42,541 nucleotides of DNA, taken from IMG/VR virus record IMGVR_UViG_2529293215_000009; one strand, 5' to 3'. The notes under the pieces are model-generated. The model did not search any database, was not told the origin of the DNA, and saw only the letters and a program-made list of their open reading frames with translations. Numbering within the stretch: position 1 is the stretch's first letter; every line of letters starts with the position of its first letter. Positions 36,524-39,668 of this stretch are shown piece by piece. Both the position numbers and the translations under genes were made by a program. This stretch comes from a virus. Taxonomy: Duplodnaviria > Heunggongvirae > Uroviricota > Caudoviricetes.

Positions 36524-36622
36524 GACGCTCCCTTTGTTGGGCCTTTACTGAATTAACGCAAAATGGCGTTTATCGGTCTGTGGATATGATAATTCAGTTT
36601 ATTCAGGAACAGGCTGATTATT

Positions 36623-38662
36623 ATGACGTCCAAATGGGTTCAACTATCATCAATGCCCGGAAACTTTACTGTTAAAGTTTCCGGTGGTACAGCGGCATTT
36701 CTTGAGGCTCCCTTTCCTCCGGCCGAAACAAAAGGAGGAATGACATTTGCTGACTGTCTCATCAGTTTTAATACACGGGATTGCCTGTGGGTAAGGCCAG
36801 TATCCGGTGATCCGAGTGTGGAAATTACCGGAGCGGGTATTGGTGCGGTCATTCCGTTAAGTGCTGATGTTGCCGGTACTGCTGAACCGTCAGACTGGGA
36901 TAATGCTGAAACACATACCCGTCCGTCAGGAAATGAAACTGCTTCCAGCTCCCCTTCCTGGTATTACGTGGTGGTTCTTGCTGGTCAGTCAAACGGTATG
37001 GCTTACGGTGAAGGTCTGCCACTGCCGGAGACATATGACCGCCCCGAACCGCGTATTATGCAGTTAGCCCGTCGCAGTACAGTCACGCCGGGAGGTAAAG
37101 CCTGTCAGTATAACGACATCATTCTGGCCGACCACTGTCTGCATGATGTGCAGGATATGAGTGGAAAAAATCACCCGAAAGCGGATGTGGCTAAAGGGCA
37201 ATATGGCACCGTGGGTCAGGGGCTTCACATTGCCAAAAAACTGCTGCCGTTTATTCCGGCAGATGCGGGGATTCTGCTGGTTCCCTGCTGCCGTGGTGGT
37301 TCTGCATTCACGGCGGGTGCTGACGGCACGTACAGTGACAGCACGGGTGCTTCAGAGGACTCAGCCCGCTGGGGTGTGGATAAGCCGCTGTATAAGGACT
37401 TAATCAGCCGGACAAAAGCGGCACTGGCGAAGAACCCGAAAAACCGCCTGCTTGCTGTGGTGTGGATGCAGGGCGAGTTTGATATTGATGCGAAGCCGAC
37501 GGAGCATTCCGCGCTGTTTCTGGCGATGGTGGAAAAATTCCGCGCAGACCTGGCTGAACAGGCGGAACAGTGTACCGGTGGCAGTGCTGCTGGCGTTCCG
37601 TGGATTTGTGGCGATACCACGTATTTCTGGAAACAGAAAAATGAACCGGCATACCAGGCAATCTATGGCGGCTACAAAAACAAAACAGATAAAAACATTC
37701 ATTTCGTTCCATTAATGACAGATGAAAATGACGCGAATGTACCCACCAACAATCCGGCAGAAGACCCGGATATTGAATCCATTGGTTATTACGGCTCAAC
37801 GTGGCGTAACAGTGCCGCCACCTGGACATCTGCGGACCGGGCCAGCCATTTCAGTTCATGGGCACGTCGTGGGATTATTTCCGACCGTCTGGCCACGGCA
37901 GTTCTGACTCATGCGGGGCGAACCACAGTAAAAGCCGATGTTCCATCTTCTGAAACTGAAGCACCAGTGCCGTCACCTTCAGAAACTGAAGCAGTAACCA
38001 CAACACTGCTGTCTTATCGTGTCAGTGAGTCAGAAGGAAATCTGAAAGCCCAGGGCTGGGAGCCGGCTGGCGGTAAAGCTGAAATTATCAGTGATGCAGG
38101 AGGCACAGGTGGTAAGGCAATGAAACTGACCAAGGAAACAGGTAAATCATCTTGGTATCTGGATCATGATGCCGGTACTGGTGCTGAACTGCTGAAAAAT
38201 GGTGGTTTAATCAGTTGTCGTTTTAAAGTACCTGGCGACCTGGTGGCAAACCAGTATGTCATGGGGCTTTACTGGCCGGTTTCCTCTCTGCCGCAGGGTG
38301 TCACCCTGACAGGGGATGCAGGGAATAATCTGCTGGCATCGTTCTACATCCAGACAGACGCAAAAGACCTGAATGTGATGTACCACAATGCAAAAGTGGC
38401 AACAAATAACCAGAAACTGGGAACCTTTGGTGCATTTGATAATGAATGGCATACGCTGGCCTTCCGTTTTGCAGGAAATAACAGCCTTCAGGTTATTCCG
38501 GTTATTGATGGTCAGGATGGTGCCGCGTTTACCCTGACGCAGTCACCAGTAGGAACTTTCCCGGTGGACAAACTCCGCGTAACGGATATCACAAAAAATG
38601 CAACTTACCCGGTGCTGATTGACAGCATTGTGGTGGAAGTGAAAAAAGCGGTAACAGAATAA
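36623..38662 (+). CDS. SGNH-hydrolase / sialate-O-acetylesterase-like protein (NanS-like) with C-terminal carbohydrate-binding-like domain
   Basis: 679 aa; VVLAGQSNGMAYGEG (GQSN block), VVWMQGEFD, ASHFSSWARRG resemble NanS/DUF303-type esterases; Ser/Thr/Pro/Glu linker then about 230 aa C-terminal domain. Confidence 0.6.
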   Translation: MTSKWVQLSSMPGNFTVKVSGGTAAFLEAPFPPAETKGGMTFADCLISFNTRDCLWVRPVSGDPSVEITGAGIGAVIPLSADVAGTAEPSDWDNAETHTRPSGNETASSSPSWYYVVVLAGQSNGMAYGEGLPLPETYDRPEPRIMQLARRSTVTPGGKACQYNDIILADHCLHDVQDMSGKNHPKADVAKGQYGTVGQGLHIAKKLLPFIPADAGILLVPCCRGGSAFTAGADGTYSDSTGASEDSARWGVDKPLYKDLISRTKAALAKNPKNRLLAVVWMQGEFDIDAKPTEHSALFLAMVEKFRADLAEQAEQCTGGSAAGVPWICGDTTYFWKQKNEPAYQAIYGGYKNKTDKNIHFVPLMTDENDANVPTNNPAEDPDIESIGYYGSTWRNSAATWTSADRASHFSSWARRGIISDRLATAVLTHAGRTTVKADVPSSETEAPVPSPSETEAVTTTLLSYRVSESEGNLKAQGWEPAGGKAEIISDAGGTGGKAMKLTKETGKSSWYLDHDAGTGAELLKNGGLISCRFKVPGDLVANQYVMGLYWPVSSLPQGVTLTGDAGNNLLASFYIQTDAKDLNVMYHNAKVATNNQKLGTFGAFDNEWHTLAFRFAGNNSLQVIPVIDGQDGAAFTLTQSPVGTFPVDKLRVTDITKNATYPVLIDSIVVEVKKAVTE

Positions 38663-38808
38663 AAAAATCCCGCCGGTCATGATATGGCTGGCGGGAGCTA
38701 CCTAACCCATAAAGGAAAATAAAAATACTCCCGAAGGAGTGGTTATCAGTCGCTTCGATGTTTTTACCCGATAACGAATTATGTAGTCAATATCAAAGGT
38801 AAGGTTAT

Positions 38809-38991
38809 ATGACATTCGTTCATACAATGCTGCTTTATTTCTGCGCTGTGGTCAGTGCGTTATATCTGGTGAGCGGTGGTTATAAGGTCATCAGAAATTA
38901 TATTCGCCGTAAAATTGATGATGCGGCAGCTGAAAAACTCAGTAAAACAGCACAGGCACCGTCATCCCCAAACGACCCGACCCCGCTCTGA
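38809..38991 (+). CDS. hypothetical small membrane protein
   Basis: 60 aa; N-terminal TM LLYFCAVVSALYLVSGG. Confidence 0.35.
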   Translation: MTFVHTMLLYFCAVVSALYLVSGGYKVIRNYIRRKIDDAAAEKLSKTAQAPSSPNDPTPL

Positions 38992-39026
38992 TAACGGGGC
39001 AATATACCTGCAAAAGGAGAATATTC

Positions 39027-39272
39027 ATGCCAGAGATTAAAGGCACGGTTACTGAAGAGCTTGTCAAACAGGCACTTTATTCTGAAGAAGTGAACCGCGT
39101 GCTGAAGGCGCAGGTTCGCAAGGATTTTGAGGCACAAATCGACGCATATGTTGATGAAGTGCTGGCCCGAATGGTTGGCCGTTCTCCGGCTGAAAACAGC
39201 ACGGAAAATGATCCTCAACCCGTAGAGCAACCAGAGCCGGTTCAGCCCGGAACTGACGGTACTATGATGTAA
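39027..39272 (+). CDS. hypothetical small acidic protein
   Basis: 81 aa ORF preceded by AAGGAGA. Confidence 0.4.
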   Translation: MPEIKGTVTEELVKQALYSEEVNRVLKAQVRKDFEAQIDAYVDEVLARMVGRSPAENSTENDPQPVEQPEPVQPGTDGTMM

Positions 39273-39590
39273 CAATACCGACCGGCAGGTTTCCCTGCCG
39301 GGTGAGTTTGTTAATGCACGTTTTGTGTATTTTCCCTCCTGGGAGAACAGGCAGGACATATCAGCATCCTGAAACAGGAAGCATTTTTGGGTTTGTATGT
39401 CTTGCCATTTTGAGATCGAGAACGGCGATAGATGAGCTGTAAGGGAGTCTTACAGGCAGGGCAAACAGGCTCTTTCATCCATGATAAAGATCTCCTTTTT
39501 ATGCATCTCTGCTTTACAGGAGACCGGGGAATATCATAGGATACGCCACGAGCTCGAAGTAAAGCATTGATGCAAGTTTTTACAGATTGA

Positions 39591-39616
39591 CCCAGCATAG
39601 TTCCAGCTATGCTGGG
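39591..39616 (+). terminator. intrinsic terminator (10-bp perfect stem)
   Basis: CCCAGCATAG ttccag CTATGCTGGG followed by TTTCACTTTTAT. Confidence 0.6.
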
Positions 39617-39668
39617 TTTCACTTTTATGTAGTATCCTGTTGATTTGAAACATACTACATATACGCGT

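Follow-up and report, generated by a model that had tools for sequence, protein, structure and literature searches.

Sialate O-acetylesterases of the NanS-p type are regarded as a fitness factor of Escherichia coli strains that produce Shiga toxin (STEC) with respect to the use of O-acetylated mucin sialic acids and have so far been studied in lambdoid prophages only. Work on the diversity of NanS-p has been concerned with lambdoid (pro)phages and with the architecture DUF1737-SASA-CTR (PMC10462455). Lambdoid NanS-p alleles hydrolyze 5-N-acetyl-9-O-acetylneuraminic acid (Neu5,9Ac2), on which they allow growth, as well as the O-acetylated glycans of mucin (review PMC8065619). The NanS-p of phage phi24B, gp84, is described as a processed capsid decoration protein whose DUF1737 domain, with a fold of one helix and three strands, binds the hexon centers as a hexamer; its cleavage is proposed to occur near an SSP-containing linker (preprint 10.64898/2026.04.10.717836). 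The locus described here lies in a 42,541-nt stretch of DNA from a virus of the Caudoviricetes (IMG/VR record IMGVR_UViG_2529293215_000009), hereafter called the window. All coordinates are those of the whole window, with position 1 as its first letter, and open reading frames (ORFs) are taken from a program-made listing. Between the DNA invertase gene gin and the genes com and mom, the window encodes a 679-amino-acid NanS-p-type esterase (36623 to 38662, plus strand, stop codon included), followed by a DUF1378 and a DUF826 protein. The three genes constitute a lineage-conserved block of a Mu-like prophage of the Sp18/Phi804-3 type, in which a β-domain at the N terminus of the esterase probably acts as a phage-type-specific targeting module.

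The 679-residue protein matches the Pfam families SASA (PF03629, formerly DUF303) with an E value of 6.5e-12 and DUF6645 (PF20350) with an E value of 2.4e-69. In a PDB sequence search, residues 104 to 428 match E. coli NanS (YjhS, PDB 3PT5; E=1.9e-118) and residues 459 to 674 match 6YP6 (E=1e-111), a chain deposited as "NanS-p" that represents the C-terminal, lectin-like part of the esterase from phi24B. The two matches do not overlap, and the protein matches phrog_143 (1027 bits). The SGNH/SASA esterase domain covers residues 113 to 430 (36959 to 37912), and the lectin-like jelly-roll domain covers residues 459 to 679 at the C terminus (37997 to 38659), both on the plus strand. The catalytic domain contains SGNH blocks I, II, III, and V as GQSNG (residues 121 to 125), RGGSAF (224 to 229), MQGEFD (282 to 287), and RASHFS (406 to 411); the blocks tabulated for 3PT5 are GQSNA, RGGSAF, MQGEFD, and R-x-SHFS (PMC10792757). 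Ser123 and His409 align with the catalytic residues Ser19 and His301 of NanS. Judged by these residues, the protein has an intact catalytic center and is a sialate O-acetylesterase of the NanS/NanS-p type; nothing points to a dead enzyme. A first-pass annotation, made from the letters of the window alone, had predicted a NanS-like SGNH/DUF303 esterase with a lectin-like C-terminal domain from the motifs GQSNG, WMQGE, and SHF. The motifs stand at residues 121 to 125, 281 to 285, and 408 to 410, and the profile search agrees with this description of the esterase and lectin parts; the annotation had overlooked the N-terminal domain. In public annotation, the names "sialate O-acetylesterase" and "DUF6645 domain-containing protein" are already in use for the protein, so the enzyme itself is not new.

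The N terminus of lambdoid NanS-p carries DUF1737 (PF08410), which a control scan detects with an E value of 1.1e-19. PF08410 was not found in the whole 679-residue protein at an E value of ≤0.1 or in residues 1 to 111 at an E value of ≤1, and no Pfam family falls on residues 1 to 111. Residues 1 to 80 (36623 to 36862, plus strand) form an all-β domain of six strands in an AlphaFold2 (AF2) model, with predicted local distance difference test (pLDDT) values of 73 to 88, followed by a disordered linker of residues 81 to 112 (36863 to 36958; pLDDT below 50) that ends in ...ASSSPS. A full-length AF2 model built from 18 sequences is poor in the esterase domain, with a mean pLDDT of 56.7, and was used for the N-terminal domain only. 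In fold searches with the domain, no decoration protein was matched with confidence.

Sequence searches place the domain in Mu-type phages. A tblastn search of the phage collection with residues 1 to 111 matches only two records, both containing the same Mu-like phage, and a word-indexed protein search with the N-terminal 111 residues finds near-identical fragments only. An exhaustive phmmer search with residues 1 to 111 against 1.84e9 representatives gave five hits, comprising three fragments of the same lineage and the proteins P0125 and P0128. P0125 is a protein of 1,445 residues with Ala/Gly/Val-rich repeats (E=1e-7 over 47 residues, 9 repeats) and was set aside as a probably compositional match. 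P0128 (GCA_037428405.1) shows 29% identity to the domain and is fused to a GQSN esterase; its gene lies downstream of gin, the surrounding prophage has DNA-circulation, baseplate, and tail-fiber genes of the Mu type, and a megablast search of the locus against phage records found nothing. No relative of the domain was found in the species-representative genomes scanned. Relatives reached through P0128 include contigs L045 to L048. In contig L045, a 784-residue protein with the N-terminal domain (39% identical to that of the window), SASA, and DUF6645 is encoded directly after the tail-fiber and assembly genes. Contig L046 encodes the domain as a separate 78-residue ORF (1264 to 1500), the start of which overlaps the stop of the tail-fiber assembly gene, with an esterase-lectin ORF as the next gene (1516 to 3627); this arrangement would mean that the fusion is naturally split here or that the contig contains a sequencing error or a pseudogene. 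In these searches, the domain was found only fused, and once adjacent, to a NanS-p-type esterase in phages with Mu-type tail genes. In L047, a viral contig of 50 kb, a gene for a Macro-domain protein (6368 to 7177; PF01661, E=1.4e-21) stands between the tail-fiber gene and its assembly gene, and a SASA-DUF6645 esterase is encoded just downstream.

Identity between the N-terminal domains falls to 21 to 39% in distant phages. The dN/dS ratio of the domain is 0.05 to 0.10 in close pairs (Nei-Gojobori method). In distant pairs, the proportion of nonsynonymous differences (pN) is 0.23 to 0.25 against a saturated proportion of synonymous differences (pS) of ∼0.77; the corresponding values for the esterase domain, ∼0.2 and ∼0.7, are comparable. 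By these substitution patterns, the N-terminal domain is under purifying selection.

Comparison of alleles shows a mosaic protein. FWSEC0008-type alleles share 96 to 99% identity with the window protein in the N-terminal domain, 67 to 68% in the esterase domain, and 37 to 45% in the lectin domain. The esterase and lectin domains of the window protein are closer to lambdoid alleles, with 81% and 78 to 85% identity, respectively, than to other Mu-like alleles, with 67 to 70% and 37 to 72%. DNA homology to lambdoid nanS-p begins at ∼36968 to 36977 in the linker and ends at the esterase stop codon. Evidently, as the aligned alleles indicate, the catalytic and lectin parts have been swapped between phage types, and the N-terminal module stays with the Mu-type backbone. 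Such a pattern is typical of virion-attached proteins with a particle-docking N terminus, which suggests that the N-terminal module may be a phage-type-specific adaptor. A hybrid nanS gene is present on contig AASMET010000054.1 (1 to 4658) of GCA_012426925.1 (L044). Its 5′ part is lambdoid, with upstream lambdoid DNA, DUF1737, and the esterase start; from the linker on, the contig is 95.5% identical to the window and continues with DUF1378, DUF826, com, and mom. Two prophages may have recombined here, or the contig may be a chimera produced by short-read assembly. P0068, which has a lectin domain 100% identical to that of the window, was rejected as an independent lambdoid allele, as its contig is a hybrid with a lambdoid 5′ part and a Mu-like 3′ part.

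The related loci, compared by tblastn, are 5 loci of E. coli and 34 contigs from IMG/VR that carry the N-terminal domain. As far as the contigs reach, all 39 show the same order: tail-fiber assembly gene, gin (missing in some), the gene for the N-terminal domain, esterase, and lectin, DUF1378, DUF826, a variable spacer, com, and mom. The three divergent relatives M18, FORC_043, and FWSEC0008 all carry the DUF6645 protein, DUF1378, and DUF826, followed by com-mom. A search of 5,426 complete E. coli genomes with a concatenate of gin and com-mom found no place with at least 80% coverage and none in which the two are adjacent. Because the block-free junction occurs in none of these genomes and all divergent relatives carry the block, the esterase-DUF1378-DUF826 block is, on this comparison of loci, a stable feature of the Mu-like clade and not a strain-specific insertion. 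The sporadic event implied by the term cargo insertion in the first-pass annotation is consequently not borne out. In some copies of the Mu-like phage, namely, LC727881.1 (L002), L015, L016, and L037, the match to com extends only to about window position 40057, the right-end gene differs, and there is no detectable mom homologue.

The genes downstream of the esterase link the Mu-like locus to lambdoid phages. The two small ORFs noted in the first-pass annotation encode a DUF1378 protein of 60 residues (38809 to 38991, plus strand; PF07125, E=1.2e-38) and a DUF826 protein of 81 residues (39027 to 39272, plus strand; PF05696, E=2.8e-15). The N terminus of the DUF1378 protein has a hydrophobic stretch that may be a membrane span. 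The Stx phage SH2026Stx1 shows the order Q, stxA, stxB, hypothetical gene, SASA esterase, DUF1378, DUF826, holin, and lysozyme, and DUF1378 homologues with ∼53% identity lie ∼150 bp downstream of nanS-p in ∼305 phage records. By gene order, the three-gene block is thus common to lambdoid late regions and the right end of the Mu-like phage.

On its left side, the block is bordered by the gin-type invertase gene (35963 to 36523, plus strand), the product of which matches Resolvase (E=1.4e-51) and HTH_7 in Pfam and shows 75% amino acid identity to Mu Gin. On its right side follow com (39890 to 40090, plus strand; Zn_ribbon_Com, E=3.2e-12) and mom (40044 to 40781, plus strand; Mom, E=4e-77), with coordinates from the RefSeq annotation of an identical locus. 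The distance from gin to com is 3,366 bp (36524 to 39889), compared to 94 bp in Mu (gin end at 35673, com start at 35768), in agreement with the first-pass remark that gin is directly followed by com-mom in Mu and that ∼3 kb intervenes here. A terminator-like hairpin stands directly 3′ of the DUF826 gene (39282 to 39301, plus strand; dG of −22.1, z score of −4.7) and is kept in four divergent relatives. The terminator that the first-pass annotation had placed at the end of the block is a real 13-bp hairpin with a T-run (39589 to 39618, plus strand; dG of −21.5, z score of −5.8), and the closure of the block at this point was misplaced. Since this hairpin lies within a segment of ∼390 bp upstream of com that is kept in all relatives, comparison of the loci puts the block's right edge at ∼39305 to 39500 and not at 39620.

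The segment from 39311 to 39500 is variable. A minus-strand ORF of 154 residues and doubtful status (39311 to 39775) straddles the variable segment and the conserved segment upstream of com, and it is replaced, frameshifted, or truncated in relatives; it matches phrog_26524 over residues 1 to 104 only and has no Pfam or PADLOC family. The small ORFs that different relatives carry at this variable spot are unrelated: the window ORF contains CPAC...CPAC motifs, M18 encodes a 175-residue zinc-ribbon protein (L003, 6060 to 6990), and FORC_043 encodes 66 residues (L004, 6260 to 6700). Searches of the small ORFs of the variable segment with PADLOC and Pfam found nothing beyond weak zinc-ribbon matches. 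A palindrome with two GATC sites, AATCGATCGTTTTTGTCGATCGATT (39822 to 39846), which does not vary among the relatives, lies ∼45 bp upstream of com. It resembles the Dam/OxyR control of the Mu mom promoter, but the arrangement is different.

The spacer between gin and the esterase gene shows no significant RNA structure (z score of −1.06), so read-through from gin is possible. The spacer forms a conserved 5′ leader of ∼100 nt (36524 to 36622, plus strand) that is kept even in relatives without gin, and in some relatives, a hairpin followed by T7 lies just upstream. A conserved leader after a hairpin and T-run argues for a promoter of the esterase gene's own, for which the leader would be the candidate site. 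Just past the esterase stop codon lies a GC-rich 13-bp hairpin (38668 to 38696; dG of −23.2, z score of −5.4) with an A7 run before it and no T-run after it. This is the orientation of a minus-strand terminator, and there is no convincing minus-strand gene downstream of it.

The window contains a transposable Mu-like prophage of the Sp18/Phi804-3 type, as indicated by the Resolvase, Com, and Mom matches in Pfam, by inverted repeats, and by identity to strain FRIK804. The FRIK804 match (100% identity) lies inside the coordinates given for Phi804-3, which is described as a transposable Mu-like prophage of 39.18 kb with a relationship to Sakai Sp18 (PMC7430833). Sp18 is reported to be a predicted intact element with efficient packaging of its DNA (PMC2669165). 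Many chromosomes of O157:H7 and other STEC strains contain the 4.2 kb around the block at 100% identity, and at least 80% of this region is present in 168 of the 5,426 complete E. coli genomes. Window-type N-terminal DNA occurs in 205 of these genomes, mostly O157 and other STEC. At the left end, ORFs of 696 and 310 residues (2911 to 6004) occupy the position of the Mu A and B genes; they are sized like transposase genes and were placed by position. Two inverted repeats at 34516 to 34697 and 35719 to 35900, of 182 nt and 79% complementary, bound an invertible tail-fiber segment. The inverted repeats of the Mu G segment are short, and those of the window are far longer. The right end of the prophage is near 40908. 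The right flank (40909 to 42541) consists of the lambdoid early genes DUF551, Ea22-like, and DUF4752, and many O157 genomes contain this region at 100% identity and not next to mom. Because of this lambdoid flank, the Mu-like copy is, from its sequence context, a prophage transposed into another, lambdoid prophage, as in LC727881 and LC727895; window positions 1 to ∼1780 are probably also lambdoid flank.

The function of the block can be proposed from these data and from the characterized NanS-p enzymes. By analogy with the lambdoid alleles, the esterase would de-O-acetylate Neu5,9Ac2 and the sialoglycans of mucin and so make sialic acid available for use by the bacterium. Through the lectin domain, the enzyme or the phage particle could be retained in mucus. 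The β-domain of ∼80 residues, in the place of DUF1737, would most likely fix the enzyme to the Mu-like virion before its proteolytic release. Given the linker end ...ASSSPS and the analogy to phi24B gp84, the Mu-type domain would be the counterpart of the DUF1737 adaptor. As a tentative proposal that goes further, this domain could be a previously unrecognized virion-attachment module of Mu-type myoviruses, equivalent to DUF1737 in function with an unrelated fold. Several points weigh against the explanation as a whole. The substrate specificity assigned to this allele is taken over from the characterized NanS-p enzymes, and attachment of the 679-residue protein to the virion is deduced indirectly, from the backbone specificity of its N-terminal module and the purifying selection on it; the phi24B capsid result comes from a single preprint (10.64898/2026.04.10.717836). 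The β-domain is not obligatory for the enzyme, since contig L047 has only a short N-terminal peptide and contig L048 has a third, unclassified N terminus. As to expression, no promoter was identified, a sigma-70 scan gave no more sites than shuffled sequence, and the Shine-Dalgarno sequence before the esterase ATG is weak and distant. The Mu C-protein binding motif, taken as TTAT-N6-ATAA and of uncertain form or applicability, has 0 hits in the window as a sign of late-promoter control.

Another explanation, close to the virion-independent role put forward in the first-pass annotation, is that of lysogenic-conversion cargo, which we consider rather unlikely. A soluble esterase would be made by lysogens or on induction, be released by lysis, and feed the population de-O-acetylated sialic acid, and the N-terminal domain would serve solubility, oligomerization, or substrate binding, unrelated to the particle. 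This would fit the growth on Neu5,9Ac2 conferred by NanS-p, which is discussed as a lysogen fitness factor (PMC8065619; PMC10462455), the location of the gene at the very end of the prophage beside the accessory genes gin, com, and mom, the lack of a terminator between gin and the esterase gene, with read-through in lysogens being possible, and the homologues that do without the β-domain. However, the N-terminal module keeps strictly to its phage backbone while the esterase and lectin domains are swapped, as is typical of virion-attached proteins, and the gene lies directly after the tail-fiber genes in distant relatives, with one domain ORF overlapping the stop of the assembly gene. The lambdoid homologue, moreover, is reported in the virion as a DUF1737-anchored capsid decoration (preprint 10.64898/2026.04.10.717836), and the window protein has a different conserved domain in that place, which leaves the term "virion-independent" unsupported.

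The position of the esterase gene immediately downstream of the tail-fiber and assembly genes in all Mu-type relatives could also point to a receptor-modifying enzyme of the tail or baseplate that removes O-acetyl groups from O-antigen or capsule, e.g., O-acetylated polysialic acid, for adsorption. SGNH-esterase tailspikes of other coliphages modify receptors in such a manner. In PHROG, a weak match (E=4.4e-5) to phrog_25867, a family labeled "tail protein," is in line with this, and the question has been raised as an open one for NanS-p (PMC8065619). The tail function is nevertheless improbable, as the catalytic domain is close to enzymes active on free and mucin-bound O-acetyl sialic acids, i.e., NanS and, with ∼78 to 81% identity, lambdoid NanS-p. 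STEC hosts are not known to carry sialic acid on their own surface. The sole structural evidence for the family places the protein on the capsid (preprint 10.64898/2026.04.10.717836). Hybrid lambdoid/Mu-like nanS contigs such as L044 and an N terminus without a known family would also be expected of a nonfunctional recombination remnant in which the N-terminal 110 residues are a fortuitous Mu read-through. This is extremely improbable, as 205 complete genomes carry an intact ORF, all catalytic blocks of the protein are intact, and the N-terminal domain has a confident β-fold in the AF2 model; purifying selection on the domain and its conservation down to the most distant phages largely refute a remnant. 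A lineage-conserved esterase block with a targeting module specific to the phage type remains the reading that we favor.

With the transposable Mu-like prophage, STEC strains carry another intact NanS-p-type copy with a different N-terminal module. Full-text literature searches found no paper combining nanS-p with Mu-like phages, and, within the literature that was searched, neither the Mu-type context nor the alternative N-terminal module seems to have been described. Allele counts of nanS-p that are based on DUF1737 or on a lambdoid context may miss the Mu-like copy, and Mu-like and lambdoid alleles are alike enough to recombine or to be misassembled, as the hybrid contig L044 illustrates. 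The main value of the finding lies in a natural domain swap, an experiment on whether the N-terminal module sets the particle or the location of the enzyme, which makes the NanS-p anchor hypothesis testable. If a virion anchor is indeed what the β-domain provides, a payload of mucin-glycan esterase and lectin would move between unrelated phage morphotypes by anchor swap alone, and the Mu-like phages of STEC would be mucus-adherent, glycan-editing particles.

Among the known systems, Mu, D108, and SfMu show the same order and orientation of gin, com, and mom at the right end, with an invertible tail-fiber segment upstream. Mu differs in having 94 bp between gin and com without the esterase block, and DNA searches reported no esterase match in other Mu-type phage records. 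DNA identity between the window and Mu is ∼71% and confined to mom. Chromosomal NanS (YjhS, 3PT5) corresponds to residues 104 to 428 of the window protein; in contrast, it consists of a 337-residue catalytic domain alone, without an N-terminal module or a lectin domain, and is not phage borne. The closest relationship is with lambdoid NanS-p (L0105/z1466 of 933W and vb_24B_21/gp84 of phi24B), which shares the SASA/SGNH domain, the DUF6645 domain, the downstream genes DUF1378 and DUF826, and a Ser/Pro-rich linker (...SSSP...) before the catalytic domain. Contrary to the lambdoid gene, which lies between stx/Q and the lysis cassette, the window gene lies between gin and com/mom of a transposable Mu-like myovirus and shares only the DUF1378-DUF826 synteny with that lambdoid late region; in this Mu-like context, control by Q antitermination is therefore not possible. 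The two enzymes further differ at the N terminus, where the lambdoid protein carries DUF1737 and the window protein carries an unrelated all-β domain of ∼80 residues.

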